Part shown: positions 1-21,452 of the stretch, piece by piece
Layout of the letters: each line of letters opens with the position of its first letter
Numbering within the stretch: position 1 is the stretch's first letter
Origin: an uncultured Erysipelotrichaceae bacterium
GTDB taxonomy: Bacteria > Bacillota_I > Bacilli_A > Erysipelotrichales > Erysipelotrichaceae
Assembly (NCBI GenBank): GCA_964436975.1
Contig: CAYTET010000008.1
Location: forward strand, 1-22,428
Reading direction: 5' to 3'
Length of the DNA stretch: 22,428 nucleotides
Position numbers and translations under genes: made by a program
Notes under the pieces: model-generated
The model's database searches: none
The model's input: only the letters and a program-made list of their open reading frames with translations
Told to the model about the DNA's origin: nothing

Positions 1-414
1 GGCACGGTTGTCCAGACGGCGGCGGAAACCGACCGGATGATGGCCAATACCGATCCGCGCTATGTCTTCCTGTGCTATGACACCGGCCACTTCACATTTG
101 CCGGCGAAGACCCGCTGACCATGCTGAAAAAGTATGTTGACAGAGTCGGCCATGTTCATCTGAAGGATATGCGTCTGGACGTTGTGGCCCAGGCCCGGCA
201 GAATAACTGGAGCTTTTTAACAGCGGTCCGCAACGGTGCCTTTACCGTTCCGGGCGACGGCGGTGTTGATTTTGACCCTGTCTTCGCACTGCTGGATCAG
301 GCCGGCTACCAGGGCTGGCTGCTGGTTGAAGCCGAGCAGGATCCGGCCAAGGCCGATCCGCTGGAATATGCCATCAAAGCCCGCAAGTATATTGCGGAGC
401 ATACCGGTTTATAA
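1..414 (+). CDS. iolE: Inosose dehydratase-like sugar-phosphate isomerase/epimerase (xylose-isomerase-like TIM barrel). The 5' end is cut by the window edge.
   Basis: Frame 1 is open from base 1, with no stop before the ATG at 37, so the gene continues upstream. The C-terminal sequence GYQGWLLVEAEQDPAKADPLEY is typical of AP-endonuclease-2/xylose-isomerase-like TIM barrels. Its position directly upstream of iolB-iolD-iolG fits IolE. Confidence 0.6.
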   Translation, partial: GTVVQTAAETDRMMANTDPRYVFLCYDTGHFTFAGEDPLTMLKKYVDRVGHVHLKDMRLDVVAQARQNNWSFLTAVRNGAFTVPGDGGVDFDPVFALLDQAGYQGWLLVEAEQDPAKADPLEYAIKARKYIAEHTGL

Positions 415-428
415 AAGGAAGCTTAAAG

Positions 429-1220
429 ATGTATTTCACCAAACAATTACATAACGGTTACAATTCCTATATCGATGCAGCTGTTGATGATATGGGAACC
501 CAGATGGATGTCGGCCTGCTGCTGCTGGATGCAGATCAGACCTATCAGATCCATGACGAGCATAAAGAGACCGCCGTTCTGCTGTTTGCCGGTGACGTAG
601 ATATCAATTATGGTGATTTAGCGGTGCGGGCCGTCAGACAGGACTGCTTCCATCAGGAAGCCTACTGCCTGCTGGCCAGCGCTGGCACTTCCATTTCGCT
701 GAAAGCGCATACACACTGTGAAATCTACCTGCAGCAGACAGTCAATGAAAACCACTACGCCCCGGTCATGTATACCCCGGACAAAGTCCAGGTCCAGCAT
801 GCCGGAGCCAACGGCGAGCTGATGGGCTGCATGAGACGGGAAATCAAGACCTTCTTCGATTTTGACAATGCGCCTTTCTCCAATATGGTGTTAGGCGAAG
901 TGCTCAACTATCCCGGCAAGTGGTCATCCTATCCGCCGCATCATCATCCCCAGCCGGAAGTCTATTTCTACCGCTTCGATCATCCGCAGGGCTTCGGGGC
1001 CGGATTTGCCAACGGGCAGATCTACCAGACCGGCCAGAATGGACTTTCCGTCATCAACAACGGCTTCCATTCCCAGGTGGCCGCTCCGGGCTATGCGATG
1101 TGCTATGCCTGGGGAATCCGCCATCTTGACGGCAATCCCTGGCAGAAGACCCGGATTGATGATCCGGAACATGAATGGCTCTGGCAGGCTGATGCCAACG
1201 AGCATATTTATAAAGGCTGA
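429..1220 (+). CDS. iolB: 5-deoxy-glucuronate isomerase
   Basis: 263 aa. The cupin-type signature [20 protein letters not shown] and the overall length match the IolB/KduI family. There is an AAAAGGAAG RBS-like sequence upstream, and the gene sits between iolE-like and iolD. Confidence 0.85.
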
Positions 1221-1240
1221 GCGCCGAAAGGAGAATAAGG

Positions 1241-3169
1241 ATGAAAACTGTCAGACTTACCATGGCCCAGGCCCTGGTCCGTTTTCTGGAAAACCAGTAC
1301 ATTGCCTATGACGGCCAGCAGCACCCCTTTGTTGAGGGTGTCATCATGCTGCCGGGTCACGGCAATGTGGTCGGCTTAGGCCAGGCTTTGAATCAGGAAG
1401 CTCACCGCATGAAGGTGTGGATGGGCAAAAACGAGCAGGGCATGGCTCATACCGCCGTGGCCTTTGCCAAGCAGTGCAAACGTAAAAAGATTATCGCTGT
1501 GACCTCTTCGGTCGGCCCGGGGGCGGCCAATATGGTAACCGCGGCGGCCACCGCCACGGCCAACAACATTCCGGTGCTGATTCTGCCGGGTGATGTCTAT
1601 GCCTGCCGGCAGCCGGATCCGGTGCTGCAGCAGATTGAGCAGACCAATGATCTGTCGCTTTCGACTAATGATGCTTTCAAGGCCGTCTGCCGCTACTGGG
1701 ACCGCATTGTCAGACCCGAGCAGCTGATGAGTGCCATGATTTCCGCCATGCGGACACTGACTGATCCGGCCAATACCGGCGCTGTCTGCATCGCCATTCC
1801 CCAGGATGTCGAAGGGGAAGCCTATGACTATCCGGTCTCTTTCTTTGAAAAGAGAGTGCATCATCTGGCCCGGCGGCTGCCGGAGCCGGAAATCATCGAG
1901 CAGGCGGCTGAAGTTATCCGCAATGCCAAAAAGCCGCTGCTGATCTGCGGCGGCGGGGTCCGCTACAGCGAGGCCCATGCCGAATTCAAGGCTTTTGCCG
2001 AAGCGGCCAATATTCCCTTTGGCGAAACCCAGGCCGGCAAGGGCGCCGTGCTGTACGATCATCCGCTGAATCTGGGCGGCATCGGAGTCACCGGCTGTTC
2101 AGCCGCCAATGACATTGCCAAACAGGCTGATGTCATCATCGGCGTCGGCACCCGGTATACGGATTTCACGACTTCTTCCAAGTGGCTGTTTAAAGACAGC
2201 GCTAAATTTGTTAATATTAATGTATCAGATTTCCAGGCTTTGAAGATGAATGCGGCGGTGGCCGTGGTGGCGGATGCCAAGCGCGCCCTGCCGGAGCTGC
2301 AGAAGGCTCTGCAGGGCTACAAGGCCCCTTATACCACTGAAATCAAAAAAGCCCGGGATAAATGGTTTGCCGAATTAAAGCGGCTTGATAATATCAGTTT
2401 TGGTCCCAAATACGTGCCGGAAGTCAATGATGCCAATGCGGCTTCGGCGTTCCGGTTTGCCAAGGATATGGATGCTACGCTGACCCAGACCACTGTCGTC
2501 GGTCTGATCAACCAGGCCATTGATGCCGAAGATGTCATTATCGGCTCATCCGGCTCGCTGCCGGGCGATTTGCAGAGAATGTGGTGTGCCCGCAGTCTGG
2601 ATTCCTACAATATGGAGTACGGCTATTCCTGCATGGGTTATGAAATCAGCGGCGCCTTGGGCGTCAAATATGCCATCGGCAAGGACCATGATGTCTATGC
2701 CATGGTCGGTGACGGCAGCTTCACCATGCTGCATTCCGAGCTGCTGACAGCGGTGCAGGAGCATGAGAAGATCAATGTCTGTGTCTTCAACAACGCCAGC
2801 TTCGGCTGCATCAATAACCTGCAGGTCGGCCATGGCAATGATTCCTTATGCACGGAAGTCCGCTTCCGCGGTAAGGACGGCAAGCATTCCGGCAAGTTCA
2901 TTCCGGTTGACTTTGCCAAAATAGGCGAGGGCTACGGCTGCAAGTCTTACACCATCCATACCCTGGATGAGATGAAGCAGGCGCTGGCCGATGCCAAAAA
3001 GATTAAAGACCAGCCGGTTGTCTTTGACATCCGGGTTCTGCCCAAGAGCATGACTGAAGGCTACGGGTCCTGGTGGCGGGTCGGCGATACGGAAGTATCC
3101 AAGAACCCGAAGAATGTGGAAGCTTATCAGGATCATCTGAAGCACGTTAAAGACGCGCGCAAATTCTAA
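1241..3169 (+). CDS. iolD: 3D-(3,5/4)-trihydroxycyclohexane-1,2-dione acylhydrolase (thiamine-diphosphate enzyme)
   Basis: 642 aa. The N-terminus [21 protein letters not shown] and the blocks [51 protein letters not shown] and ETQAGKG..HPLNLGG parallel Bacillus subtilis IolD as I recall it. A TPP-binding GDGSF...NN motif is present. RBS AAAGGAGAA. Confidence 0.9.
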
Positions 3170-3189
3170 AAAAAGGGAGATACACAAAT

Positions 3190-4221
3190 ATGGAACATGT
3201 ATTACAGGTCGGTATCGTCGGCTGCGGCGCTATCGGCAAGGATCACTGCCGCCGCATCATTGAAAAAGTGCCCGGAGCCACCGTTGTCGCTGTCAGCGAT
3301 TACAATGCGGCTGCGGCCGATGAAACGGCTGCCAAGTACGGCATTAAATCCTTTGGCAATGACTGCAAGGGCATGATCGCCGATCCGTCAGTTGAAGCGG
3401 TTGTCATCACTTCAATTGATCCGACCCATCATGAGTATGTCATGGAAGTGCTGAAGCATAAGAAGTGGTGCTTCTGTGAAAAACCGCTGTCCCAGAATGC
3501 CAAGGACTGTGAGGAGATCATTGCGGAAGAGCAGAAGATCGGCCACCGCCTTGTCCAGGTCGGCTTTATGAGAAGATATGACCGCGGCTATGCTGAAATG
3601 AAGCGGATTATTGATTCCGGTGCCATCGGCAAGCCGTTAGTCATCAAGGCCTGCCACCGCAATGTTGCCCAGGGTCCCGGATTCAAGACCGAAAACGGCA
3701 TCACCAACGTCGCTATCCATGAACTGGATATCTGCCGCTGGCTGCTGAATGATGAGTATCAGGATGCCCAGGTGGTCAGAGTCCGCCAGTCATCCAATTC
3801 AACCAAGGGCTATGACAACCCGCAGGTTGTCCTGCTGAGAACCAAGAACAACTGCTTCATCGATGTTGAAGTCCAGGTTGCCGACGGCTACGGCTATGAT
3901 ATCCAGTGCGAAGTCGTCTGCGAAAACGGCACTGTCAAGCTGCCTGATCCGATGGCGGTTGTCAGAAGAGCCAGACCCGACCTCACCAAGGAACCGTTTA
4001 TTGAACAGCCGATCATGACCGACTGGAAAGAGCGCTTCATTGAAGCTTATGACATTGAGCTGTGTGACTGGGTTGATGCCATTGCCAAGGGCAAGCTGAC
4101 CGGACCTTCCGTCTGGGACGGCTATGTGGCCTGCGTGGCCGGTGATGCCTGCAATGCATCCCGCGGCACTTCGACTTTCTTACCGGTGAATACTATCGAA
4201 AAACCGGAAATGTATAAGTAG
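3190..4221 (+). CDS. iolG: myo-inositol 2-dehydrogenase (Gfo/Idh/MocA family)
   Basis: 343 aa. It has an N-terminal Rossmann GIVGCGAIGKDH motif. The blocks FCEKPL, RLVQVGFMRRYDRGY, HRN, GYGYDIQCEVVCENGTVKLPDP and GPSVWDGY closely parallel B. subtilis IolG from memory. Confidence 0.85.
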   Translation: MEHVLQVGIVGCGAIGKDHCRRIIEKVPGATVVAVSDYNAAAADETAAKYGIKSFGNDCKGMIADPSVEAVVITSIDPTHHEYVMEVLKHKKWCFCEKPLSQNAKDCEEIIAEEQKIGHRLVQVGFMRRYDRGYAEMKRIIDSGAIGKPLVIKACHRNVAQGPGFKTENGITNVAIHELDICRWLLNDEYQDAQVVRVRQSSNSTKGYDNPQVVLLRTKNNCFIDVEVQVADGYGYDIQCEVVCENGTVKLPDPMAVVRRARPDLTKEPFIEQPIMTDWKERFIEAYDIELCDWVDAIAKGKLTGPSVWDGYVACVAGDACNASRGTSTFLPVNTIEKPEMYK

Positions 4222-4299: not shown

Positions 4300-4330
4300 T
4301 GAATTTTCATGGAAAAGGAAAGGAGCAGAA

Positions 4331-6182: not shown

Positions 6183-7301
6183 ATGAGCAGAATCGAACTA
6201 AAGCACATTGATAAATTCTACGGTGAAAACCATGTTCTGCGCGATCTCAATCTGACTATCGAAGACGGCGACTTCATGACGCTGCTGGGTCCGTCAGGCT
6301 GTGGAAAGACCACGACATTAAGAGTTATTTCCGGTTTGGAAGAGCCGCAGAATGGTACAATGACTATAGACGGTGTTGAGATGATCAATGCCGCCGATGC
6401 ATACTTTGCCGAGCCCAGCAAAAGAGGGCTGAATCTGGTTTTCCAGTCTTATGCCCTGTGGCCGCACATGACGGTCAAGGAGAATATCGCCTTTGGTCTG
6501 AAGATTCAGAAACTGCCTAAGGCTGAAGTTGAAGCCCGCGTCAAGGATGCGCTGCGGATGATGCGGATCGAGGAATACATCGACCGCTATCCCAACGAAC
6601 TTTCCGGCGGCCAGCAGCAGCGTGTCGCTATTGCCCGCGCTGTGGCCTCCAATCCCAAGCTGCTGCTGCTGGATGAGCCTTTGAGCAATCTGGACGCCCG
6701 GCTGCGCATTGACATGCGCTCGGAGCTGCAGCGGCTGCATCATGAATTGAAGACGACAATTATCTATGTCACCCATGACCAGGTCGAAGCTCTGACCATG
6801 TCAACCAAGATTGCCCTGTTCAAAGAGGGTGAACTGAGTCAGGTGGCCACGCCCATGGAGCTGTACCGCAACCCGATTGACCTGCAGGCCGCCGATTTCA
6901 TCGGCAACCCGCGGATCAACTTCTTAAAAGGCGATGCGGAAATGAAGGGCGGCAAGCTGCATGTTCACTGCGAACTGCAGGATTACGTCTTTGACAAGGA
7001 AGACATGACCGATGAGCCGATTCCAGAAGGAAACTTTGCGGTAGTGGTAGCCATCCGGCCGGAGCAGGTTCACATTGAACAGCAGGCCAGTGCGGACACC
7101 ATGCCGGTTGAGGTTTATGCTTCCCAGCCGGCCGGTTCGGAAACCCTGGTTTCCTTAAGAGCCGGTTCATCGGATTTCTTATCCAAGGAGATTGGTCTGG
7201 CGGAATATAAGATCGGCCAGCAGGTCAATGTCAGAGTCAATCCCAAGCGCGTCAATATCTATGATGCCGCTTCAACCCGTTTGATCAAACGCGCTCAGTA
7301 A
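6183..7301 (+). CDS. ABC transporter ATP-binding protein (MalK/FbpC/PotA-like, with a C-terminal TOBE-like domain)
   Basis: Walker [10 protein letters not shown], signature [14 protein letters not shown], Walker [13 protein letters not shown], and H-loop THDQ. A roughly 130-aa C-terminal regulatory/OB-like extension is present. Confidence 0.9.
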
Positions 7302-8715: not shown

Positions 8716-9306
8716 ATGGTAAAAAGAGTCGATAAAGGCAACCAGTCTTCCGCAAGAGAGAAGACGGAAACCTTCAAAGAGAAATGGACACGGCGGGGCA
8801 AAAAGTTTTTGGGCATCTTTGCGTTTACGGAAAACGGCAAGCCTAAAAGCAGCCTTTTGATTTACACCTTCTGTCTGAGCTTTGTCTTTGTGGTGCTGCT
8901 GATAGTGGCCTTCTGGTTTCTTTCGGAAGCCCAGAACGCCTATCTTACGGCGCTGCCGGTTTTCTGGACCAATCTGGCCGTATCTTTGGGCATGAGTGCT
9001 TTCTGCATGCTGACCGGCTATATAATGCACCACTTTATGAAGGACAAGCGGCTGCTGTTTGTGACTTATGTCTGGCTGGCGGTCTATGATGTTGTTACTA
9101 TCATTGCCCAGGCTATCATGCTGGCCAGTGAACCGGGCGGCTTTGGCATCTTCATGACCTTCTTTGTCTGGGTTGCCATCATTCCGGTAATATGCGGACT
9201 GTTTTTCTTCTACTGGCTGTTCAAGCGTGACTACAAGCCGCCGGTAGAACCCGGACCGACTGATCCGGTGGCAGAGACAATGAATAAATATGTCAATCAC
9301 AGGTAA
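8716..9306 (+). CDS. Hypothetical integral membrane protein (4 predicted TM helices, Lys-rich cytoplasmic N-terminus)
   Basis: Four hydrophobic segments: LLIYTFCLSFVFVVLLIVAFWFL, LPVFWTNLAVSLGMSAFCMLTGYIM, LLFVTYVWLAVYDVVTIIAQAIML and IFMTFFVWVAIIPVICGLFFFYWLF. AGGAGA lies about 12 nt upstream. The stop is 3 nt before the next gene. I recognise no family. Confidence 0.55.
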   Translation: MVKRVDKGNQSSAREKTETFKEKWTRRGKKFLGIFAFTENGKPKSSLLIYTFCLSFVFVVLLIVAFWFLSEAQNAYLTALPVFWTNLAVSLGMSAFCMLTGYIMHHFMKDKRLLFVTYVWLAVYDVVTIIAQAIMLASEPGGFGIFMTFFVWVAIIPVICGLFFFYWLFKRDYKPPVEPGPTDPVAETMNKYVNHR

Positions 9307-9309
9307 GAT

Positions 9310-10275
9310 ATGTTAAAAGTGCATTTTATCAATGTCGCCGAAGGCGATGCAACTTTATTTGAATTCAGTCAGCCTGACGGCATCTACCGTCTGCTGATTG
9401 ATGACGGCCATGCCCAGCTGGAACCGACTTCCGGCTCGGCCCGCAATACCGCCCTGCAGTATCTGCAGAACAGGCAGATCAGCCATCTTGACGCGCTGGT
9501 CATCACCCATCTGCATCTGGATCACTTCGGGGCCACGGCTGCTTTAGCCGAAAACATCCGGATTGATGATGTCTATGCTTCTTATTTCCCCCCCCGGGCC
9601 GATTCCTACATTGAAAATGCGGATCAGCCGGATAAGGAAAGACGCAAGCTGCAGGACTGTCTTGATCTGTGGGCCCGCAACACGGCCGCTTTGCGCCAAG
9701 CCGGCAGCCGGCTGCACACGGTTGACCAGGACACCAATATTGCCACCGCCAACGGTCTGGATATCAGGCTTATCTGCCCGTCGGCGCTAGCCCTGCAGAT
9801 GCAGCGCAAGCTGTTTGATGACATGTATGCCGGCAAGCCGCTTCAAGATAAGAATATCTTCTGGGCATCTAAATCCCGCAATCCGGCTTCGCTGCGTACT
9901 GAAATTGTCTATGCCGGCCGCCGCATTGAAATGGCTGCCGACTGCTACGGGCGGATCTGGGAGAATGAGGAGCTGTTGCCCTGTGACATTCTGAAGATTC
10001 CGCATCATGCCGATGCCAAGTCACTGACCGCTAAGCTGGTGGACAAACTGCATCCGCGCTATGCGGTCGCCACCTGCGGCAAGGATTACATTGAGCGCAA
10101 AGACCGGCCTTCCGCCAAGATGATTGCTTATCTGACGGCGGTGGATACCCGGGTCTATTTTACGGATTCATTCGCTTTTAACGGCCAGCCTGCAAACGTT
10201 TGGCCGGCAGTGATTTTTACGATTGACGACGATGGCACAATAAAAGCCCCCCAGAGTGAAGGGAAGAAAGGATAA
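9310..10275 (+). CDS. MBL-fold metallo-hydrolase (ComEC-C-terminal-like / beta-lactamase superfamily II)
   Basis: The N-terminus VHFINVAEGDATLF...LLIDDG and the HxHxDH motif (VITHLHLDHFG) are typical of the family, as is the later KIPHHAD. Its stop is 2 nt before the start of the following HAD gene. Confidence 0.8.
   Translation: MLKVHFINVAEGDATLFEFSQPDGIYRLLIDDGHAQLEPTSGSARNTALQYLQNRQISHLDALVITHLHLDHFGATAALAENIRIDDVYASYFPPRADSYIENADQPDKERRKLQDCLDLWARNTAALRQAGSRLHTVDQDTNIATANGLDIRLICPSALALQMQRKLFDDMYAGKPLQDKNIFWASKSRNPASLRTEIVYAGRRIEMAADCYGRIWENEELLPCDILKIPHHADAKSLTAKLVDKLHPRYAVATCGKDYIERKDRPSAKMIAYLTAVDTRVYFTDSFAFNGQPANVWPAVIFTIDDDGTIKAPQSEGKKG
10191..10204. promoter_or_regulatory. Intragenic copy of the operator-like motif (TGCAAACGTTTGGC) near the 3' end of the MBL gene
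   Basis: The 13-mer CTGCAAACGTTTG (10190-10202) is identical to 4285-4297 and contains the same 10-bp perfect palindrome. It lies 76 bp upstream of the HAD gene start at 10278. It also encodes PANVW, so chance cannot be excluded. Confidence 0.3.
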
Positions 10276-10277
10276 CC

Positions 10278-11030
10278 ATGATTACTACGGTGATGTTTGA
10301 TATGGGCGGAACGCTCGAGGATATCTGTGTTGATGAAGCCTCTAAGCAGGCCGCTAACAGGCAGCTTTATAATATTCTGCTGGACTGCGGCATGGCGGCT
10401 GATACCGACCCGGCGGTTCTGCGCCAGCAGACTGAAAAAGGCTGGATCGACTATGGCTGTTACCGCGACAGCGTTGATGTCGAACTGAAGCCGGAGCATA
10501 TCTGGTGCGATTATGTACTGAAGGGCTTTGACGTCGATATGGCCAAAGTCAAGGCTAACAGCGAAAGAATCGCCAAGATGTGGGAATTAACTTATTATCA
10601 CCGTTCGCTCAGACCGCGCGTGGCGGAAATGCTGGAAGGTCTGCAGTCATTAGGCCTGCAGCTGGGCGTCATCAGCAATACGGCCGCCATGTACCAGGTC
10701 TTCTCTTCGCTGCAGGAGTACGGCATCCGCGATTATTTCAAGGATGTGACCCTGTCATCGGTGACCGGACTGCGCAAGCCCTGCCCCGACATCTTTGAAG
10801 TGTCCCTGCACCAGCTGCAGGCTTCAGCGGATGAGTGCTTCTATGTGGGCGATACCATTTCCCGGGATATTGTCGGTTCCAAGCGGGCCGGCTTTGCCGG
10901 AGCCATCCAGATCTATTCCCATCTGACGGCCATGAAGGATATCGCGGATAAATACGAGTTCAAGCCTGACTATGTCGTCGAAGACATCTATGATGTCTAC
11001 CCGCTGCTGAAAAAAGTCTTAGGCAAATAA
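10278..11030 (+). CDS. HAD-superfamily hydrolase, subfamily IA-like (paralogue A)
   Basis: Motif I FDMGGTL (nucleophile Asp8, Gly at +2), motif II GVISNT, motif III RKP, and motif IV YVGDTISRD. An alpha-helical cap insert lies between motifs I and II. Confidence 0.85.
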   Translation: MITTVMFDMGGTLEDICVDEASKQAANRQLYNILLDCGMAADTDPAVLRQQTEKGWIDYGCYRDSVDVELKPEHIWCDYVLKGFDVDMAKVKANSERIAKMWELTYYHRSLRPRVAEMLEGLQSLGLQLGVISNTAAMYQVFSSLQEYGIRDYFKDVTLSSVTGLRKPCPDIFEVSLHQLQASADECFYVGDTISRDIVGSKRAGFAGAIQIYSHLTAMKDIADKYEFKPDYVVEDIYDVYPLLKKVLGK

Positions 11031-11050
11031 AAACCCGTGGTTACGGGTTT
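11031..11050. terminator. Bidirectional hairpin between the convergent HAD-A and lacI-family genes
   Basis: AAACCCGT (11031-11038), loop GGTT, then ACGGGTTT (11043-11050). On the minus strand it is followed by TTTTTATTT, making a good terminator for the regulator. It overlaps the regulator stop codon. Confidence 0.6.
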
Positions 11051-12081
11051 GAAGGCTGATCCGGCTTAGGATAGCCGGCTAACGGAGCGCAGGTCGACCG
11101 CTTCATCAGCGAGGGCATCAGGATCCGGTGGGTATAGCCGTCCAGATTATTCTGGATCTTGTCGACCAGGATATTGACGCATACGGATGCCAGCATTTTG
11201 ACCGGCTGTTCGATAGTGGACAGGTTGATCCGCGGCAGGGAGCTGTCCCGGATATTGTCAAAGCCTAAAAGGGAAAGATCTTCCGGGATCCGCAGCCCGA
11301 CTTCCTCAGCGGCCTGCATGACGCCAAAGGCGTTGGTATCGGTTGAGGCAAAGACGGCCGTGTAATTGCGGGGCTGGCTGAACATCTGCTTGGCCAGCAG
11401 ATAGCCGTATTTAGTGGATGAAGAAGTGAAAGTGTTGTTGCAGTACTGCGGATTCAGGCCTAAATCCTTGCAGGCCGCCGCATAGCCTTCCGCTCTGAGC
11501 TGATGGGTTATGCTGGCCTTGCGCTGGCCGAAGTACAGAATACGGCGGTGGCCCAGGCTGTACAGATATTCCACACCCATGTAGGCCCCGCGGAAATTAT
11601 CCACGGAAACATAGTTTTCCGGAGCATCGCGCATGTTCTCCCCGACAAAGACAGTGGGGACCTGGGCAATCCGCTCGCACAGATTGTCATAGCTTTCCGG
11701 TCCGACCGGCACCAGGATGATGCCGTCGACCTGCCGGCCGACCATCAGTTCAAAAAGGCTGTTCTCCTGCTGGGGGTCATAAGCCGAATTGCACAGAATG
11801 ATATTGTAACCCATGTTGCGGGCCTGCCGGTCGATATGATAGGCCAGTTCGGACATATAGGGGTTGTTGACCCCGGGCAGAATAAGACCCAGCAGCTTGG
11901 TGCTTTTGATGACCATGGCCCGGGCCACGGTATTGACCGTGTAGTTCATGTCCTTGCAGGCGGCAATAATGCGCTGGTAGGCATCCGGACTGACATTGGC
12001 ACTGCCGGACAAGGCCCGTGAGACCGTTGAATAGGATACGCCGGCCTGTTTGGCCACGTCCTTGATGGTAATTCGTTTCAT
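11041..12081 (-). CDS. LacI-family transcriptional regulator
   Basis: The N-terminal HTH is MKRITIKDVAKQAGVSYSTVSRALSG...VSPDAYQRI, followed by a periplasmic-binding-protein-like sugar-binding core. The start at 12081 (GGAGC RBS upstream) is preferred over the ORF-track start at 12162, which would add 27 non-conserved residues. Confidence 0.9.
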   Translation of the reverse strand: MKRITIKDVAKQAGVSYSTVSRALSGSANVSPDAYQRIIAACKDMNYTVNTVARAMVIKSTKLLGLILPGVNNPYMSELAYHIDRQARNMGYNIILCNSAYDPQQENSLFELMVGRQVDGIILVPVGPESYDNLCERIAQVPTVFVGENMRDAPENYVSVDNFRGAYMGVEYLYSLGHRRILYFGQRKASITHQLRAEGYAAACKDLGLNPQYCNNTFTSSSTKYGYLLAKQMFSQPRNYTAVFASTDTNAFGVMQAAEEVGLRIPEDLSLLGFDNIRDSSLPRINLSTIEQPVKMLASVCVNILVDKIQNNLDGYTHRILMPSLMKRSTCAPLAGYPKPDQPSNP

Positions 12082-12280
12082 GATAGCTCCTGTTATGCAA
12101 CAAAATGCACACGATAAACAGATTTTATGACATTTATTTGCATAATACAAGAGCCCCTGCAAATTGTTTCATTGCTCAAAACGGCCCAAAAAGGCCGTAA
12201 ATACCGTATTTTACGCTATAAAACAAGCTTGAAAAAGAACAGTCATGCCATAAATCAGGCATCTATTATGACTGAATTTG

Positions 12281-13114: not shown

Positions 13115-13849
13115 ATGAAAAACAATATTGATACCATTTTCTTCGATGTCGGCAATACCCTGCGTTATGTTGTTCCCGATGCCGCCTTTTCGGCCCAGGC
13201 CGATCAGCAGCTGATGGAGCTGGTCAAGACAACCGCCAGCCACGAAGAGTTTTTTGCCGAACTGAATGCCAACTGGAAGAAATACCGCAAATGGGCCAAG
13301 GACAATCTGCTGGATGTCTCCGAGATGGAACTGTGGATGCAGTTTCTGCTGCCGGAATATGATCCGGCCATCATTGCCCCCAATGCCCCCCGGCTGACCC
13401 GGCTGTGGCGCGACCATGACGGCCGCCGGGTGCCGCATGATGATGTGGATTCTACATTGAGAGAACTGACCAACCGCGGCTACAAACTGGGCATCATTGC
13501 CAACACCATTACCGAAACCGAGATTCCGGACTGGATGTGCCATGACCAGGTTGCCGACTGTTTCAAGACGGTCATTCTGTCCTCCAAGGTCAGACTGCGC
13601 AAGCCTGATCCGGCCATCTATCTGCTGGGCGCCCGCTGCATCGATTCCAAACCGGAAGACTGCGCCTATGTGGGCGACAATGCCGTCCGGGATGTGGACG
13701 GGGCGGTTGATTCCGGCTATGGCGCCATGATCCTGTTTGAGTTTGAAGGTGTGGCCGTTGACCGGGACGGGGTATCACCCAATCACCAGCCGGATTACAA
13801 GATCGGCCATATCGGCGATCTGCTCGATCTGTTCGGGCCCAGAGGTTAA
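13115..13849 (+). CDS. HAD-superfamily hydrolase (paralogue C)
   Basis: Motifs FDVGNTL, GIIANT (Ala where the motif II Ser/Thr is expected), RKPDPAIY and YVGDNAVRD. RBS GGGAGG. It shares RGYKLGII and the YRKW cap motif with paralogues D and E. Confidence 0.85.
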   Translation: MKNNIDTIFFDVGNTLRYVVPDAAFSAQADQQLMELVKTTASHEEFFAELNANWKKYRKWAKDNLLDVSEMELWMQFLLPEYDPAIIAPNAPRLTRLWRDHDGRRVPHDDVDSTLRELTNRGYKLGIIANTITETEIPDWMCHDQVADCFKTVILSSKVRLRKPDPAIYLLGARCIDSKPEDCAYVGDNAVRDVDGAVDSGYGAMILFEFEGVAVDRDGVSPNHQPDYKIGHIGDLLDLFGPRG

Positions 13850-13852: not shown

Positions 13853-14575
13853 ATGAAAGACATCAAGGGTGTTTTCTTTGATTTAGGCGGGACGCTGCGG
13901 ATTGCCCAGGAAGTTCCCGAACATATTCAGAAAGCCAAAAGGGCCATGGCTGATCTGGCCGGCGTTACTGATGAAAATGCCTTTTTGGAGATGATTGATA
14001 AACGCTATGAGCCCTACCGCAAATGGGCCATGACGGAATATAAGGAATGCGGGGATTTTGATCTGTGGCATATCTGGCTGCTGCCGGACATGCCGGAAGA
14101 AGAACTGCGGCCGGTCTGCCACCAGCTGACTTACCAGTACCGCCAGGTCAAAGGCCTGCGCCATCTGGTCACCCATGGTCTTGAAGTCATCAAAACGCTG
14201 CACCAGCGCGGCTACAAGCTGGGCATCATTTCCAATCTGATCGGTGAAAACGAAGTCGCCGACTGGCTCAGGGATGATGATCTGGCCCAATATTTTGATT
14301 CGGTAGTCCTTTCATCCATCTGCCATATCCGCAAGCCGGATCCGGCTATCTATGATATCGGCTGTGCCGAATTAGGTCTGAAGCCGGGCCAGTGCGCTTC
14401 GGTGGCCGACAATCTGAGCCGGGATTTTACCGGGGCTAAGGCGGCCGGCATCGGCGTCAATATTCTGTTCATCAGTCCGGAAAAGCTGGCCGGCAAAACG
14501 ATAACTGAAGAAAACCGCCCGGACATTATCATCAATGATTTCCTTGAATTGCTGGACCTGCCTTTTCTGCAGTAA
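13853..14575 (+). CDS. HAD-superfamily hydrolase (paralogue D)
   Basis: Motifs FDLGGTL, GIISNL, RKPDPAIY and SVADNLSRD. The start is 3 nt after the stop of paralogue C. Confidence 0.85.
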   Translation: MKDIKGVFFDLGGTLRIAQEVPEHIQKAKRAMADLAGVTDENAFLEMIDKRYEPYRKWAMTEYKECGDFDLWHIWLLPDMPEEELRPVCHQLTYQYRQVKGLRHLVTHGLEVIKTLHQRGYKLGIISNLIGENEVADWLRDDDLAQYFDSVVLSSICHIRKPDPAIYDIGCAELGLKPGQCASVADNLSRDFTGAKAAGIGVNILFISPEKLAGKTITEENRPDIIINDFLELLDLPFLQ

Positions 14576-14589: not shown

Positions 14590-15318
14590 ATGGCTGATAT
14601 AAACACGCTGTTCTTCGATTTAGGCGATACCTTCCGCGTCATCCGTCATGATGATGAATACTCCCGGGCGGCCCGGGCGCTGATCTGTGAAAAACTGGGG
14701 GTTACCGAAGATCCGGATAAGTTCTATCATGAAGTCATCGAGCCGCGCTATGACAAATACCGGCAGTGGGCTTTGACTTATTACTGTGAAGCCCCGGAAA
14801 AAGTGCTCTGGACCCGCTGGCTGGCGTATGATTATCCTAAGGATGTCGTCGAGGCGGCGGCTTCCGAGCTGACTTTTGCCTACCGGCGCACCAAAGGGGA
14901 GCGCGTGGTTACCGAAGGCGGCATTGAAACGGTTAAGGAGCTGTTTGCCCGCGGCTATAAGCTGGGCATCATCTCCGATCTGGTCGGTGTCCATGAGGTT
15001 GACCAGTGGCTTGACCACGACCAGCTGCGTCCTTATTTCAAGACGGTGCAGCAGTCCTCGCTCTGTCTGATCCGCAAGCCCCATCCGGCGATTTACTATT
15101 ATGCCATGAATGAGATCGGCTCATCCGGGGAGCAGTGCTGCTTTGTCGGCGATAACCTTAACCGCGATATCATCGGGGCCAAGGCGGCCGGCATCGGCAT
15201 GACCATCGGGGTGCGCTATCCGGGCAAAAAAGAGCAGGAAATCACCCCGGAAAATAAGCCTGATCAGTTTATAACGCATTTTTCGCAGCTGCTGGATATT
15301 TTCCCAGCGCGCGGTTAG
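14590..15318 (+). CDS. HAD-superfamily hydrolase (paralogue E)
   Basis: Motifs FDLGDTF, GIISDL, RKPHPAIY and FVGDNLNRD. RBS AAGGAGAAG. Confidence 0.85.
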   Translation: MADINTLFFDLGDTFRVIRHDDEYSRAARALICEKLGVTEDPDKFYHEVIEPRYDKYRQWALTYYCEAPEKVLWTRWLAYDYPKDVVEAAASELTFAYRRTKGERVVTEGGIETVKELFARGYKLGIISDLVGVHEVDQWLDHDQLRPYFKTVQQSSLCLIRKPHPAIYYYAMNEIGSSGEQCCFVGDNLNRDIIGAKAAGIGMTIGVRYPGKKEQEITPENKPDQFITHFSQLLDIFPARG

Positions 15319-15332: not shown

Positions 15333-16898
15333 ATGGAAAAAGAAATGAATCATGGCGGTGCGGCCCTGGCCAAAGCCGTCCGTAAAGCTTATGAGCAGAA
15401 TCAGACGGATTACTCACTGGCCCCGCTGTGTCTGGTTGATGAAAACGACCAGCCGGTGGGCAAAATAAAAGACGGCGATGCGGTTATCTTCTGCTGCCGG
15501 CGGGGCGAAAGGGAAGTTGAACTGACCGAAGCCTTCACCCAGCCTGATTTTGACAAGTTTGACCGGCCGTATCTGAGTCAGCTGCAGTTCGGCATTCTGA
15601 CGATGTATCATGAAAAATTCAAGAATCTGCCGATTGCCTTTGCCCCGGAGAAGGTGGTCATGCCGCTGGCCCAGGTCATAGCCCAGGCCGGCCTGACCCA
15701 GTTTCACTGCTCGGAATCCGAAAAGTTTGCCCATGTAACCTTCTTCTTCAACGGCGGCTATAACCAGCCCTTTGAAAAAGAGACGGATACCTGTGTGCCT
15801 TCACCCAAGGGCGTGCCGTTTGACACCGTGCCGGAATTAAGCCTGCCGGCCGTCGCCGCCAAGGTGGAAGAAGCCGTTGATACCGGCTATGATTTCATTC
15901 TGACTAACTTTGCCAACGGCGATGTTATCGGCCATACTTCCAACAGCGATGCCAAACTGCTGGCCGCCGCGGCCATCAGCAAGTATGTTGATAAAGTCGC
16001 CCATTATGCGCAGGATCACGGCTATTTGGTTGCCATCACGGCTGACCACGGCAACATTGAAACCCTGCGGACAGAAGCCGGCAAGCCGCATGTGGCCCAT
16101 ACCTGCAATCTGGTGCCCTTTATCGTGCTGGATCCGCAGCACCGGGAGATCAAGCTGCGGGACGGCTCCCTGAAGGATGTTGCCCCGACAGTGCTGTCGG
16201 TGCTGGGTCTGGATGCCCCGGCGGAAATGAGCGGACAGTCCCTGATTGAAACGGCTGATATCCATAACAAGAAAATGATACTGATTATTCTGGATGGCTG
16301 GGGTCTGGGCAGCCAGGATGACAATGACGCCATCTATCTGGCGGATACACCGGGCTGGGACAAACTGATGGCGGATTATCCGCATTCCAGCTTAGCCGCC
16401 AGCGGCCTGTATGTCGGCCTGCAGGACGGCAAGCCGGGCAACTCCGAAGCCGGCCACTGCAATATGGGCGCCGGCCGGGTCGTCGAGCAGGATGATGTCC
16501 GCATGGACAATGCCATCAAAGACGGCTCTTTCAAGACCAATCCGGTTTTCCTGAAGCTGATCGACCATGCCAAACAGTGCGGCAGCCTGCATCTGATTGC
16601 GCTGCTGACCGAAAAGTCCAGCCACGGCTGCATCGCTTATCCGCTGATGCTGGCGGAAATGGCTAAAGAAGTTCCCCATGTCTATTTCCACATCATCTTT
16701 GACGGCCGCAGCACCGAACCGGGCAGTGCCCCGGCGCTGCTGGAAAAGCTGGATGGCCAACTGGCCCAGATTGGAACCGGCCTGGTGGTTGACGGCATCG
16801 GCCGCGGCATTATTCTGGACCGCGACGGCAACTATGCCCGCATTGAAACGGGCTACCGGGAACTGACCGAAGGTAAGGGGATCCCTTATCATTTATAG
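15333..16898 (+). CDS. Circularly permuted homologue of 2,3-bisphosphoglycerate-independent phosphoglycerate mutase (alkaline-phosphatase superfamily phosphomutase; substrate unknown)
   Basis: 521 aa. Residues 1-305 align with the C-terminal ~290 aa of canonical iPGM through the blocks DGDAVIFCCRRGER, ESEKFAHVTFFFNGG, NFANGDVIGHT, ITADHGN, KPHVAHTCNLVPF and LKDVAPTVLSVLGL. Residues 313-521 align with the canonical N-terminal ~225 aa through KKMILIILDGWG, GNSEAGHCNMGAGR, SLHLIALL, FDGRS and GRGIILDRD. RBS AGGAGG. Confidence 0.85.
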   Translation: MEKEMNHGGAALAKAVRKAYEQNQTDYSLAPLCLVDENDQPVGKIKDGDAVIFCCRRGEREVELTEAFTQPDFDKFDRPYLSQLQFGILTMYHEKFKNLPIAFAPEKVVMPLAQVIAQAGLTQFHCSESEKFAHVTFFFNGGYNQPFEKETDTCVPSPKGVPFDTVPELSLPAVAAKVEEAVDTGYDFILTNFANGDVIGHTSNSDAKLLAAAAISKYVDKVAHYAQDHGYLVAITADHGNIETLRTEAGKPHVAHTCNLVPFIVLDPQHREIKLRDGSLKDVAPTVLSVLGLDAPAEMSGQSLIETADIHNKKMILIILDGWGLGSQDDNDAIYLADTPGWDKLMADYPHSSLAASGLYVGLQDGKPGNSEAGHCNMGAGRVVEQDDVRMDNAIKDGSFKTNPVFLKLIDHAKQCGSLHLIALLTEKSSHGCIAYPLMLAEMAKEVPHVYFHIIFDGRSTEPGSAPALLEKLDGQLAQIGTGLVVDGIGRGIILDRDGNYARIETGYRELTEGKGIPYHL

Positions 16899-16922: not shown

Positions 16923-17645
16923 ATGAATAGTGCAGTAGATTTATCCAGTCTGACCCTGACGCCCTGGGAGATTATCATCCGGCTGGCGGGGGCCATGGTA
17001 ATAGGGGCCATCATCGGCACCGAGCGGGAATACACCCACCGGCCGGCCGGCATGCGGACCCATATGCTGGTGGCGCTGGGATCATGCGCCGTAATGGTGA
17101 CCAGCCAGCTGATGTTTGTGCAGTATCACGCTTTCGGGGCTTCCCCGGATCCGGCCCGGCTGCCGGCGCAGGTTATCGCCGGGGTTGGCTTTTTAGGCGC
17201 CGGCACGATTTTAAGGGACGGCACCTCCATCAAGGGTCTGACCACGGCGGCCAGTGTCTGGGCGGTGGCCTGTCTGGGCATTGCCATCGGCGCCGGCTAT
17301 TATATTCTGGCGGTGGCCGGTACGGCCTGCATGCTGATAACGCTGACTTTCTTTGAGTGGCTGCAGAAAAAGCTGATCCACAGCCGCTATGAGACCTATC
17401 TGTTTCTGGTGCAGTCAACCAATGTCGTGGTGACCTTAGCCCAGATCAACAAGCTGGCCATCGAAGTCGAAGCTTCCGTCAGCAGCATCCAGGTCAATGA
17501 AATAAACGATAACGGCAACTACAGCATCAACTTCCGGACTAATTTTTCCGGCCGGCATGCCTCCACGCGGATGCAGCAGTTCTTAATGGATCTGACCAGT
17601 GATGAATGCACGGTCTCCATTAAATCGGAGCAGATCAGACTGTAG
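16923..17645 (+). CDS. MgtC/SapB-family membrane protein
   Basis: The N-terminal block IIRLAGAMVIGAIIGTEREYTHRPAGMRTHMLVALGS is the family signature. It has 4-5 TM helices followed by a soluble C-terminal domain. RBS AAAGGAGAA. Confidence 0.85.
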   Translation: MNSAVDLSSLTLTPWEIIIRLAGAMVIGAIIGTEREYTHRPAGMRTHMLVALGSCAVMVTSQLMFVQYHAFGASPDPARLPAQVIAGVGFLGAGTILRDGTSIKGLTTAASVWAVACLGIAIGAGYYILAVAGTACMLITLTFFEWLQKKLIHSRYETYLFLVQSTNVVVTLAQINKLAIEVEASVSSIQVNEINDNGNYSINFRTNFSGRHASTRMQQFLMDLTSDECTVSIKSEQIRL

Positions 17646-17737: not shown

Positions 17738-18622
17738 ATGAAGCAGCAATATGATTTAATGCTTGTCGGACCGGCTTCCCGGGACGAAAATATCGACTAT
17801 ACCGGGGCTGTCGACAAGTCCATCGGCGGGGCCGTGACGTTCTGCTCGGCTTCAGCCCAGGCGGCCAGCGGCAGTGTTTTTGCGGCAGTTGTCGCCGCCC
17901 CCAATGAGCCGGATGTCATGGATTCCATTATTCTGGATGATGATGACAAGATGCTGATTCCGTCTTCGGTAACCACCTCGATCCGCAACCAGTACTTCAC
18001 GGCGGACCGGGAAAGACGCGAGTCCAAGTGCATTGCCCAGTCTGATCCGGTCACCCCGGATAAGATTCCGGCCGGCCATTTCAAGATGTATCATTTAGCC
18101 GGACTTTTATACGGCGATTTCCCCAACGAGCTTATTGTTGATCTGGCATCCAAGGGCCAGCTGGCCGGGGATGCCCAGGGCTTTTTAAGACACAATGAAA
18201 ACGGGGCGATGGTTTTCCATGACTGGGCCGACAAAAAGGAAATGCTGAAGCACTTTGCCTTTCTGAAAACAGACGCTTTGGAAGCCCTGACTCTGACCGG
18301 CTTTGAAGACCGGGCCAAGGCAGCTGAACAGCTGTACCAGTGGGGGGCTAAAGAAGTTATGGTTTCCCATAACAGCGAGATAATGGTCTATGATGGCAAC
18401 AAGGTCTATACCTGCCCGATCAAAGCCCGCAACCTGTCCGGCCGGACCGGCCGGGGTGACACGACGACCGGGGCTTATCTGGCCCGCCGGCTGGACGGTG
18501 ATGACGTTGAAACAGCGCTGCTGTATGCGACCGCCTGTGTTTCTTTGAAGATGGAAAAAGTCGGCGTGTTCAGCCACAGCCGGCAGGATGTCTACGATTA
18601 TATTGCCCAGTTTTACCGCTGA
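17738..18622 (+). CDS. PfkB-family carbohydrate kinase (divergent)
   Basis: 294 aa. It has an N-terminal LMLVGPASRDENIDY...SIGGAV beta-strand/GG motif and a C-terminal PfkB signature-2-like GRTGRGDTTTGAYLA (the GxGD anion hole). RBS AAAGGAGA. Confidence 0.8.
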   Translation: MKQQYDLMLVGPASRDENIDYTGAVDKSIGGAVTFCSASAQAASGSVFAAVVAAPNEPDVMDSIILDDDDKMLIPSSVTTSIRNQYFTADRERRESKCIAQSDPVTPDKIPAGHFKMYHLAGLLYGDFPNELIVDLASKGQLAGDAQGFLRHNENGAMVFHDWADKKEMLKHFAFLKTDALEALTLTGFEDRAKAAEQLYQWGAKEVMVSHNSEIMVYDGNKVYTCPIKARNLSGRTGRGDTTTGAYLARRLDGDDVETALLYATACVSLKMEKVGVFSHSRQDVYDYIAQFYR

Positions 18623-18808: not shown

Positions 18809-20196
18809 ATGAAGGCGTGGGAATTGGAACGTCAGAATATGGACCACAGTGTACCGGTTCATATGGCCGACAACAACGAAGAAATATGGGAAGAGCAGAG
18901 CAATGGGCCGGAGCAGGCTCAGGATGCCACCATTAAGAATTACTGGGCCAGCAAGGTCCCGGGCTCACGGGCTTCCGAATCGATTATCATCGCCGCTGTC
19001 CAGGCCATGGAAAACCGCGGCTATTCTGTTAAAAACAGCGAAGACATGTGGCTGGCCGGACTGAGTGCGGTGGCCGGCGAAGACGTTGTCAGCATGCACA
19101 AAAACTACTATAAGATCATGCAGGCCTGCCTGCAGGCGGAAAAGGATGAAAGTTCGCCGTACTGGCAGCAGCATTTCTATGATACTTTTGAAGAATACGA
19201 AAAGGCCGTCAAATTTCCCCAGGCCCGCCCGGTTGACATGGGCAATATGCTGGTTGACAAGATCGAAGCCGGCTGGCTGGGCCAGATTATCGGCGGAGCC
19301 TACGGCACCTGTCTGGAAGGGTATACCACCGACAACATCATGAAAGCCTATCCGCATCTGGATATCTACCAGCGCAAGCCGAATACCTATAACGATGACA
19401 TTACTTATGAACTGGCCCTGCTGCTGGCTTATGAGGAGAACGGCAAAGCAACGACATCACGCGACATTGCCGACGAATGGGTCAGCCGGATTGCCTTTGG
19501 CTGGTCAGCCGAGGATATGGCGCTGCGCAATCTGCGCTGCGGTATGATGCCGCCGGAGTCCGGCCGTTTCAACAACCCTTATTATGAGTGGATCGGGGCC
19601 CAGATGCGCGGGGCGGTTTTGGGCCAGCTTTATCCGGGTGATCCGTACAATGCGGCCAAAGCGGCCTGGCAGGACGGCATTATCTCCCATGCCCGCAACG
19701 GTGTCTTGGGCGAAGTGTTCAATGCCATCATGGTGGCCATGGCTTTCTACCAGAATGATCTAGACAGCTGGTCAAGGATGCAGTGGCCCTGATGCCGGCC
19801 GACAGCGAATACGGCCAGGTCGTCCGGTTTGCTTTGGAGCAGTGTGAAAACAGCGCCGACTGGCTGACCGCCTGGCGGCCCTGCGAAAAGAAGTACGAGC
19901 GCTATAACTGGGTGCATGCCTATCCCAATGCCTGCGCCGAAGTGGTGGCCTTATGGTTCTGCCAGGATGATTTCACCAAACTGCTGGTTATTTCCGGCGG
20001 CTGCGGCCAGGACGTTGACTGCAATGCGGCTCAGATTGCTACCGTATGGGCAACCCGCAAGGGCAAACAGGCTATCCCGGCCTACTGGACCGAGCCTATC
20101 GGCGACCATCTGGATACCTATGTCCGCGGCTTAAAGCAGCTGAGCATCCGCCAGCTGGCCGTCCGGACGGCGGCTGTGGCAAACCACCTGAAATAA
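18809..20196 (+). pseudogene. ADP-ribosylglycohydrolase-family gene interrupted by a frameshift near 19760
   Basis: ORF 18809-19792 carries the N-terminal family block (WLGQIIGGAYGTCLEG). ORF 19783-20196, in a different frame, carries the C-terminal block (GGCGQDVDCNAAQIATVWA). The downstream frame is open from 19759 and reads RQLVKDAVALMPADSEY, continuing naturally from ...AFYQND in the upstream frame. Confidence 0.65.
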
Positions 20197-20294: not shown

Positions 20295-21452
20295 ATGAAA
20301 AAACTTTTGAAGATTGCTCTTTGCGCACTGCTGGTGTTCGGCATGGCCGCTTGCGGCACCACCGGCGGTGACACAAAAGATGATCGTATCCGTCTGGTAT
20401 ACATCATCAACGGAACCTTAGGTGATAAGTCATTCTTTGATTCCGGAAAAGAAGGTCTGGATCTTATTGATGCCAAGTATGGCGATAAGGTCTATACCGA
20501 GTATCGTGAGCTGACCTATGACGATTCGACATGGGAACAGAAGGCTCAGGATATTGTGGCTGAAGGCTGGGATATCGTTATCGCCGGCACTTATGACATG
20601 CTGGGCTATTTTGAAGGCAGCAATGGCAATGAGGGCTTAGCTACCAAGTATCCCGATACCAAGTTCTGGTTCTTTGATGAATCTTGGGATTTCACGGCTT
20701 ATCCTAATACCAACGTTTATGGCATGCTGTTCAGCCAGAACGAAGGTTCCTTCGCTGTCGGTGTCATCGCTGCGATGACCACCAAGACCAACAAGGTTGC
20801 CTTTGAAGGCGGTATGGATAACACGGTTCTGGATGACTTCTTCGTTGGCTTCTATGAGGGCGTCAAGTATGAAGCTGCTCAGTTAGGCAAAGAAATCACG
20901 GTCACTCTGGACTGGATGAATTCATTCTCTGATTCCACAGTCGGCAAGGACAAAGCCGGTGCTCTGTACAACCAGGGCTACGATGTTGTCTTCGCCTGCG
21001 GCGGCTCAGCCGGTTTAGGCGTTTTCGATGCTGCTGTTGAATACAATACGGCTAATCCGAATAACCCGGTTTATGTCATCGGTGTTGATGGCGACCAGGG
21101 TGCTTATTTCGGTTCATTATCTGATGATCTCAGCAAGTCCAAAGCCAGCTGCACTGTTACTTCCATGCAGAAGAACGTTAACCAGGGCTTCCTGTATGCC
21201 ATGGGCAAACATCTGGATAACACCCTGCCTTACGGCCAGGTTGAACATCTGGGCTTGAACGGCGGCTTCGTTTCCGCTTCCGTCAATGATTACACCAAAG
21301 CTATTCTGAGCAATGACCAGATCACATCCGTTAACGCTATTGTTGATCAGATCGTTGCTGGTACCCTGACTGTTGATTCCATGTTTGGCGATAAGGCCTT
21401 AACACAGGATCAGTTCAAACAGTTTGGCGCAGGCACTTGGGTTCAGAAGTAG
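20295..21452 (+). CDS. BMP/PnrA-family ABC transporter substrate-binding lipoprotein (nucleoside-type)
   Basis: The signal peptide has a lipobox (VFGMAAC). DKSFFDSGKEGL, GYDVVFACGGSAGLGVFDAA and VIGVDGDQ are typical of the basic membrane protein family. RBS GGGAGG. Confidence 0.85.
   Translation: MKKLLKIALCALLVFGMAACGTTGGDTKDDRIRLVYIINGTLGDKSFFDSGKEGLDLIDAKYGDKVYTEYRELTYDDSTWEQKAQDIVAEGWDIVIAGTYDMLGYFEGSNGNEGLATKYPDTKFWFFDESWDFTAYPNTNVYGMLFSQNEGSFAVGVIAAMTTKTNKVAFEGGMDNTVLDDFFVGFYEGVKYEAAQLGKEITVTLDWMNSFSDSTVGKDKAGALYNQGYDVVFACGGSAGLGVFDAAVEYNTANPNNPVYVIGVDGDQGAYFGSLSDDLSKSKASCTVTSMQKNVNQGFLYAMGKHLDNTLPYGQVEHLGLNGGFVSASVNDYTKAILSNDQITSVNAIVDQIVAGTLTVDSMFGDKALTQDQFKQFGAGTWVQK

Follow-up and report, generated by a model that had tools for sequence, protein, structure and literature searches.

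A circularly permuted homologue of cofactor-independent phosphoglycerate mutase and its gene cluster in an uncultured Erysipelotrichaceae bacterium

The locus studied here raises the question of whether a single protein can carry the two halves of a glycolytic enzyme in swapped order and, if so, whether it still does the work of that enzyme. The window, that is, the whole stretch of 22,428 nucleotides analysed (contig CAYTET010000008.1 of an uncultured Erysipelotrichaceae bacterium), encodes at 15333..16898 of the + strand a homologue of cofactor-independent phosphoglycerate mutase (iPGM), which is a textbook glycolytic enzyme, a drug target and the subject of many solved structures. A first-pass annotation, made from the letters of the sequence, had proposed that this protein is a circular permutant of iPGM. 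Our analysis leaves us virtually certain that it is: the protein is a genuine, evolutionarily fixed and conserved circular permutant of this two-domain metalloenzyme. Its function is weighed below, after the chain, the pocket and the gene neighbourhood.

The permuted chain and its family

The gene and the parts of its product are as follows.

15333..16898, + strand: circularly permuted iPGM-family protein, 521 aa, an uninterrupted open reading frame (ORF) including its stop codon (ORF list, swapped alignment to 1EJJ, split Pfam and TIGR01307 matches, AlphaFold2 model)
15378..16247, + strand: residues 16-305, second part of the transferase domain, then C-terminal part of the phosphatase domain (phmmer alignment, 9.1e-53)
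16248..16265, + strand: residues 306-311 (ETADIH), linker from the old C-terminus to the old N-terminus, unaligned between both HMMER segments
16266..16889, + strand: residues 312-519, N-terminal part of the phosphatase domain, then first part of the transferase domain (phmmer alignment, 4.4e-40)

The iPGM of Geobacillus stearothermophilus (Gs; structure 1EJJ) served as the reference. Our phmmer search against the PDB sequences matched solely iPGMs, each of them in two stretches. On 1EJJ, residues 312-519 corresponded to Gs 3-213 (i-Evalue 4.4e-40) and residues 16-305 to Gs 220-509 (i-Evalue 9.1e-53). The two matches do not overlap and their order is swapped; the alignment is not collinear with canonical iPGM, as that of a GpmI would be, and both halves are strongly homologous to parts of it. 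Only Gs residues 214-219 were left unaligned and the length is essentially unchanged (521 aa versus 511 aa in Gs), which agrees with the earlier statement that nothing had been lost or duplicated. The chain now ends at Gs 213 and begins at Gs 220, positions that are adjacent in the parent chain, and the ends thus fit one loop of the transferase domain, as had been claimed.

The domain models gave the same picture. Metalloenzyme (6.6e-54) and iPGM_N (6.8e-40) were both found by Pfam, each in two stretches. The best stretch of the former covers residues 105-294 (profile 65-251 of 252), and that of the latter covers residues 392-516 at the C-terminus of the protein (profile 2-129 of 217). TIGR01307 was also matched in two stretches, with residues 10-305 on profile positions 211-504, and their summed score was 465 versus a cutoff of 330; the score for the stricter equivalog model NF003897 was 378 versus a cutoff of 862. 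Both the alkaline-phosphatase-like metal domain and the phosphotransferase domain are present according to Pfam and Foldseek. The local alignment and the domain-model scan that the first-pass annotation had suggested therefore bear out its reading of iPGM halves in swapped order, and all the motif blocks it had quoted were found in the protein. Its description of the linker was right as to a short linker at the old termini but not as to the exact residues, which are ETADIH (306-311) rather than TADIHN. A clean cut in one loop, with the old termini rejoined by a short linker, is a circular permutation, and that interpretation stands.

AlphaFold2, run with a 30-sequence family alignment, gave a model with a mean pLDDT of 95 and a pTM of 0.88, in which the linker is confidently modelled. 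In the model the new N-terminus opens a helix (residues 9-21), and the new C-terminus consists of a helix (501-513) and, after it, a short strand (517-519). This places the cut in a strand-helix loop of the transferase domain, and the chain is predicted to start in a surface loop of that domain. A Foldseek search against the PDB returned 22 significant hits, all of them canonical iPGMs, aligned over about 226-344 of 521 columns with TM values of 0.39-0.53. Such partial coverage is what an order-dependent aligner yields for a permutant, and no solved PDB chain matched the permuted topology at full length in this search.

Canonical iPGM carries its transferase domain as an insertion in the alkaline-phosphatase-like domain. 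We take the domain limits in Gs to be 1-76 and 311-511 for the phosphatase and 77-310 for the transferase. Mapped onto these limits, the permutant appears to have a contiguous phosphatase domain (about residues 105-385) and a transferase domain split between both ends of the chain. Both inter-domain crossings appear to be retained at hinge positions, so the open/closed mechanism should be intact.

The permuted order is not confined to this contig. Nineteen contigs, drawn from independent ENA and Logan assemblies, encode the identical protein. Four of them show identical DNA across the junction (16200-16320), and two of these four differ elsewhere in the gene, synonymously only. A word-indexed search found more than 120 clusters at 90% identity, with 67-100% identity to the query and collinear over 97-100% of it. 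By an exhaustive HMMER scan, at least 16 of the best 150 representatives at 50% identity matched in a single full-length stretch and are thus permuted. Their identity to the query goes down to 36%, which is the same divergence from it as that of canonical iPGMs. When 31 permuted proteins were aligned, their N-terminal helices and C-terminal ends fell together and their linkers took the same position; between conserved flanks, this short segment varies in sequence and by a few residues in length. The permutant is therefore a whole subfamily rather than a one-off. The database search for homologues of the same order proposed earlier has in this way yielded a subfamily, whose neighbourhoods we examined.

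The permuted gene was located in 22 genome loci, from metagenome-assembled genomes (MAGs) of Oscillospiraceae, Lachnospiraceae and Clostridiales, a Christensenella-labelled MAG and Chloroflexota, the proteins of the last being 57-58% identical to the query. The labelled taxa of the family include Oscillospiraceae, Christensenellales, Chloroflexota, Pseudomonadota and Ca. Desulfofervidus auxilii. No duplication or fusion intermediate was seen among the longer homologues (550-2349 aa), each of which has one N-part and one C-part in the canonical order.

Because the identical protein occurs on 19 independent contigs and the family has a common order and cut point, the permutation is not an assembly artefact. 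The junction as a chimera had been named as one hazard for this reading. A chimera, or two partial iPGM genes in tandem joined by a frameshift, for which only the unusual order speaks, is ruled out for all practical purposes by those contigs, the identical junction DNA and the deep family, and pLDDT values of 95 through the linker also stand against it. As a natural, ancient and widespread permutant, the family indicates that the two-domain fold of iPGM tolerates re-threading, by which the "inserted" transferase domain becomes the split one.

Active site and substrate pocket

The 30 permuted sequences were un-permuted and aligned with 43 canonical representatives and the Gs sequence. The metal ligands D12, D403, H407, D444, H445 and H462 and the nucleophile S62 are invariant in all 30, the query included. 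Their equivalents in the query are D321 (Gs D12), D197 and H201 (D403 and H407), D238 and H239 (D444 and H445), H256 (H462) and the nucleophile S371 (S62).

Nine residues have been described as contacts of 2-phosphoglycerate (2-PG) and 3-phosphoglycerate (3-PG): S62, H123, R153, D154, R185, R191, R261, R264 and K336 (PMC3886921). Eight of the nine are kept in the permuted proteins, and the query does not have the full set. The equivalents of H123, R185, R191, R261, R264 and K336 are invariant in the 30 sequences and that of R153 is kept in 27 of them; in the query the contact residues are H431 (H123), R459 (R153), R491 (R185), R497 (R191), R57 and R60 (R261 and R264) and K131 (K336). With the metal ligands, the Ser nucleophile and the Arg, Lys and His contacts kept, the protein should still bind an anionic phosphoester. 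To judge from these residues, it is very probably a catalytically competent phospho-Ser metalloenzyme.

The ninth contact is the one that has changed.

16710..16712, + strand: codon of Ser460, at the position of the canonical substrate-contact residue Asp154 (column counts)

Position 154 is Asp in 42 of the 43 canonical sequences; among the permuted ones (n = 30) it is Ser in 24, Gly in three and Asp in three. We then filtered for columns with at least 85% conservation among the canonical enzymes in which at least 70% of the permuted sequences have another residue. Eleven signature columns passed this filter: V64A, V122S, H128Y, D154S, M189L, W195Y, E231Y, N259C, D263E, T334S and M404V. A twelfth signature position, H125, is variable in the permuted clade. 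Two of the signature changes remove an acidic side chain, and the replacement of E231 by Tyr is among the changes. From the loss of two acidic side chains we infer, without proof, that the pocket may suit a more anionic or bulkier ligand. The main permuted clade thus has a changed substrate pocket.

This main clade comprises 28 of the 30 permuted sequences and was recovered in 200 of 200 neighbour-joining (NJ) bootstraps. Monophyly of all 30 was recovered in only 8 of 200, since the other two group with the canonical enzymes:

L029 8001-9626: P0182, permuted iPGM with a canonical pocket
L027 4041-5585: P0131, permuted iPGM with a canonical pocket

P0131 and P0182 are cut in the loop that is also cut in the main permuted clade, and their old termini are fused likewise, but they carry the canonical residue at at least ten of the 12 signature positions, including D154, E231, N259 and M404. 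Their identity to canonical enzymes is 44-45%, versus 37-39% to the main clade. The P0182 gene overlaps the stop codon of a glucose-6-phosphate isomerase (PGI) gene and lies in a housekeeping neighbourhood, and by its pocket and position it has the look of a permuted but otherwise ordinary glycolytic enzyme. The two proteins may represent a second origin of the permutation at a favoured loop, or they may be a slowly evolving basal form. Alternatively, the permutation may have arisen once, long ago, and the main clade may then have taken on a new function. Indels gave no marker of a single origin, as none outside the termini was common to the permuted sequences.

Gene neighbourhood in the window and in other genomes

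The permuted gene stands in a run of + strand genes, with a LacI-type regulator gene on the - strand. The features around it in the window are as follows; HAD stands for haloacid dehalogenase, MBL for metallo-beta-lactamase and PPi for pyrophosphate.

37..4221, + strand: myo-inositol catabolic genes, namely iolE (cut at the window edge), an iolB-like gene, iolD and an iolG-like gene (IolD 896 bits versus a cutoff of 715)
4295-6157, + strand: ABC importer, fused double permease (Pfam, NCBIfam)
6183-7301, + strand: ABC importer, ATPase with a TOBE domain (Pfam, NCBIfam)
7401-8639, + strand: ABC importer, lipoprotein substrate-binding protein (Pfam, NCBIfam)
8716-9306, + strand: conserved 196-aa protein
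9310-10275, + strand: MBL-fold hydrolase (Lactamase_B match)
10278..11030, + strand: HAD-IA paralogue 1 (HAD1), motif I D-x-G-x-T
11041..12162, - strand: LacI-family regulator, divergent, inside the cluster
12278/12323-13078, 13115-13849, 13853-14575 and 14590-15318, + strand: HAD2 to HAD5, four tandem HAD-IA paralogues directly upstream of the permuted gene
16923..17645, + strand: MgtC/SapB-family membrane protein, a variable member of the cluster
17738..18622, + strand: PfkB kinase of the TM0415 type, predicted to be PPi-dependent and to act on myo-inositol or an inositol-pathway intermediate (1VK4/5YSP, E about 2e-37)

The profile of the substrate-binding protein matches FbpA-like binding proteins (E 5.6e-10), which places it in a class only; we take this class to include the sugar-phosphate binder AfuA. 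The 196-aa protein had no match in Pfam, NCBIfam or the PDB. Its gene always follows that of the binding protein, even in the distant locus L031 (161 aa, 28% identity), and both this protein and the MBL hydrolase have orthologues in the cluster of other genera. In identical public contigs the LacI regulator is called as 346 aa (window 11041-12081).

All five HAD-IA paralogues have the motif I D-x-G-x-T, with Gly at Asp+2, where the usual general acid/base stands. A reading of these HADs as non-phosphatases on that ground was not adopted: HAD1 weakly matches the NCBIfam model of YihX, and the E. coli YihX, a glucose-1-phosphatase, presumably carries the same D-x-G motif.

We searched the proteins of the window by tblastn against the 22 genome loci and found that the cluster is conserved almost gene for gene in about 20 of them, over a span of transporter, HAD1, LacI, HAD2 to HAD5, permuted iPGM and PfkB. 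The same synteny was seen in L039 and L041. In other genera every one of the HADs has a separate orthologue (60-75% identity), so the HADs are old and individually maintained. The LacI regulator is 67-73% identical in most Bacillota loci. The ABC transporter is co-conserved with the permuted gene in Bacillota, in Chloroflexota and on one Pseudomonadota-labelled contig, and distant members of the main clade keep the association with the same fused-permease transporter. An H+-translocating membrane pyrophosphatase (H+-PPase), which the window lacks, lies inside the cluster in 10 of the 22 loci, in two arrangements. The most informative loci outside the window are the following; GDPD stands for glycerophosphodiester phosphodiesterase.

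L007 12505-14592: H+-PPase, adjoining PfkB or the permuted iPGM; also in L001, L003-L006, L009, L010, L021 and L022
L031 9001-18093: two permuted paralogues, two GDPDs, PfkB and the same transporter
L036 9001-16038: GDPD and the same transporter beside the permuted gene
L019 (Chloroflexota, a Chloroflexia MAG): HADs, two PRK-like kinases, an ApgM-type mutase, RpiR, the transporter and, nearby, UxaE

Downstream of the permuted gene in L019 (11575-16250) come, in this order, a PRK-like kinase, an archaeal-type ApgM mutase, another PRK-like kinase and an RpiR regulator, which puts the ApgM-type gene two genes downstream of the permuted one. Upstream of it, on the other strand, stand UxaE, an SDR, a LarA-like gene, a 6PGD-like gene and PfkB.

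Of two further species, one (L039/L040) likewise has an iolE-B-D-G block ahead of the cluster, and the other (L041) has none there. Directly upstream of that block and the cluster, L039 (1-4731) has genes for GAPDH, PGK, a split transketolase and a LarA-like protein on the same strand.

The PfkB kinase would connect the cluster to inositol and PPi. TM0415 has been described as a myo-inositol 1-kinase that depends on PPi, and an intermediate of the inositol pathway may be its true acceptor (PMC5931981). The PfkB of the window keeps the TM0415 residues D11, I76, N78, S89, L116, Q141, R145, K171, R229, R232, D234 and M266. These include all the inositol-contact residues (D11, N78, Q141 and R145) and the catalytic Asp D234, and the GRTGRGD motif is identical. 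Of the five residues of the PPi-donor signature (K171, F221, R229, R232 and M266) four are identical, and F221 is replaced by Ile, which is still hydrophobic. No IolC-type kinase was seen among the iol genes within the window, and the TM0415-like PfkB might therefore be a PPi-dependent substitute for IolC. The Thermotoga maritima locus TM0411-TM0416 resembles the window in that PfkB is a close relative of TM0415 and in that inositol catabolic genes adjoin it. It differs in that the operon as listed contains no iPGM-like gene (PMC5931981) and in that the iol genes of the window are of the IolG/E/D/B type.

Function of the permuted protein

Compared with canonical GpmI/iPGM (EC 5.4.2.12; TIGR01307; 1EJJ, 1O98, 5KGN), the query, a member of the iPGM superfamily, has both domains of that enzyme at 35-40% identity and shares with it all Mn/Zn ligands, the Ser nucleophile, eight of the nine substrate contacts and the two inter-domain crossings at the hinge. 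It differs in its cut at Gs 213/220 with fused old termini, in a contiguous phosphatase and a split transferase domain, in Ser for D154 and 11 further signature positions, and in its non-glycolytic, LacI-linked cluster. Archaeal ApgM (PF10143) and the phosphopentomutase DeoB resemble it in the core fold, the metal site and the Ser/Thr phospho-enzyme chemistry, and also in having a cap domain set into the core; however, the similarity to them is weak (E 1e-6 to 1e-8, well short of the cutoffs of their models) and the cap domain is different.

The explanation that fits best overall, and one that we regard as probable, is that of a fixed iPGM permutant with phospho-Ser chemistry and a non-glycolytic role on an imported organophosphate. 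The non-glycolytic part is drawn from D154S, the 11 further signature changes and the LacI-linked cluster of importer, HADs and PPi kinase. From these we consider it rather likely that the role is a specialised one and that the interconversion of 3-PG and 2-PG is not the main job. The protein would probably be a specialised organophosphate mutase or phosphatase rather than a housekeeping enzyme. The first-pass annotation had called it a homologue, which is the right word, as phosphoglycerate mutase may not be its function, given the pocket and the cluster.

In the proposed mechanism, the invariant metal site and the conserved Arg, Lys and His contacts would bind an anionic phosphoester, and its phosphate would be moved to Ser371. 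The phosphate would then be passed to a neighbouring hydroxyl, as in a mutase, or to water, as in a phosphatase. A phosphate would in this way be repositioned or removed on an imported, multiply charged organophosphate. A mutase is preferred over a phosphatase because the whole transferase domain stays conserved. An inositol phosphate, or a compound released by the cleavage of glycerophosphodiesters, would be the leading candidate for the substrate, and the product would feed inositol catabolism. A substrate of the inositol-phosphate type is a tentative suggestion from the gene content.

More specifically, the protein could be an inositol-phosphate phosphomutase. An inositol polyphosphate such as phytate would be imported and trimmed by the HADs, and the protein would shift its last phosphate, which resists the phosphatases, to the position that the TM0415-like enzyme uses. 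This enzyme would then work in reverse (InsP + Pi -> inositol + PPi), and the PPi would be used by the H+-pyrophosphatase encoded in the same cluster. Some of the energy in the phosphoester bonds of phytate would in this way be saved, and inositol would enter the Iol pathway. We consider this scheme a long shot.

Several observations weigh against the non-glycolytic explanation. Eight of the nine phosphoglycerate (PGA) contacts are unchanged and TIGR01307 passes its cutoff (465 versus 330), so the protein may still have an ordinary 2-PG/3-PG mutase activity. The invariant Arg cluster would suit a carboxylate equally well as extra phosphates. There is no characterised inositol-phosphate enzyme in the cluster, and the iol genes are adjacent in only two of the three species with a readable upstream region. 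In L039, gap and pgk, which encode GAPDH and PGK, are found on the same strand, about 20 kb upstream.

Its main rival is that the protein is the organism's glycolytic iPGM in permuted form, in which the permutation is neutral and the pocket changes reflect lineage drift. The retained PGA contacts and metal ligands, the TIGR01307 score and the upstream gap and pgk genes of L039 would all agree with this, and so would P0182, whose fully canonical pocket and PGI neighbour suggest that the permuted fold can serve in glycolysis. What it leaves unexplained is the fixed 12-position signature of the main clade, which falls at columns more than 85% conserved in canonical enzymes, D154 among them. Furthermore, the synteny across phyla is with an ABC importer, HADs or GDPDs and LacI rather than with a gap-pgk-tpi-eno operon, and two paralogues occur in one locus (L031). 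We therefore regard the glycolytic role as unlikely, if still deserving attention.

A dedicated phosphatase instead of a mutase is about as doubtful, or slightly more so. The loss of Asp154 would here lead to hydrolysis of the phospho-Ser, and the protein would be a sixth phosphate remover beside the five HADs. The replacement of D154 by Ser or Gly in 27 of the 30 permuted sequences, the intact core of the alkaline-phosphatase type and a cluster rich in phosphohydrolase-like genes (five HADs and the MBL hydrolase) are in its favour. However, the whole transferase domain is under strong conservation, including the Arg cluster by which the dephosphorylated substrate is retained for re-phosphorylation, and this is hard to explain for a plain hydrolase. 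Moreover, D154 is described as no more than a contact residue in the study cited above (PMC3886921), and the sources consulted do not establish a catalytic role for it.

The non-glycolytic explanation bears on annotation. Members of the main clade are automatically annotated as gpmI because TIGR01307 passes, and the public records name the permuted protein plain phosphoglycerate mutase or gpmI; neither Pfam nor NCBIfam returned a dedicated model for the permuted form. The pocket and the operon of the main clade argue for another substrate, and metabolic reconstructions may therefore mis-assign the glycolytic step; this concerns Oscillospiraceae of gut and rumen and some Chloroflexota. The cluster as a whole, with its FbpA/AfuA-type importer, five D-x-G HADs, PPi-dependent inositol-type kinase, H+-PPase and Iol proteins, points to an undescribed PPi-linked route for an imported organophosphate. 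The PPi-coupled use of inositol phosphates is the more speculative link in it.

The first-pass annotation had held that such a permutation is not described for this enzyme family. Full-text searches are consistent with this, as no paper was found by them, most subscription journals being outside their reach; an earlier description of a permuted iPGM may exist. A 2025 survey of 338 reviewed iPGAMs did not mention permutation. A 2025 review on the gut metabolism of inositol derivatives mentioned no mutase, no haloacid-dehalogenase-type hydrolase and no ABC-transporter route, and our literature searches on inositol-phosphate importers or pathways of this kind, on iPGM-like phosphatases and on Asp154 found nothing.

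Two further observations were made downstream of PfkB. An ADP-ribosylglycohydrolase gene is split there into two ORFs (window 18809-19792 and 19783-20196) by a 1-bp deletion, an A missing between 19761 and 19762 relative to public contigs that are about 99.9% identical. It is one gene of 462 aa in those contigs, and the split in the window is either an assembly error or a strain-specific pseudogene. It is followed by a separate nucleoside-type block (window 20295-21452, continuing in L023 14964-21566), which comprises a Bmp/PnrA binding protein, an ABC ATPase, two permeases and two inosine-uridine nucleoside hydrolases.

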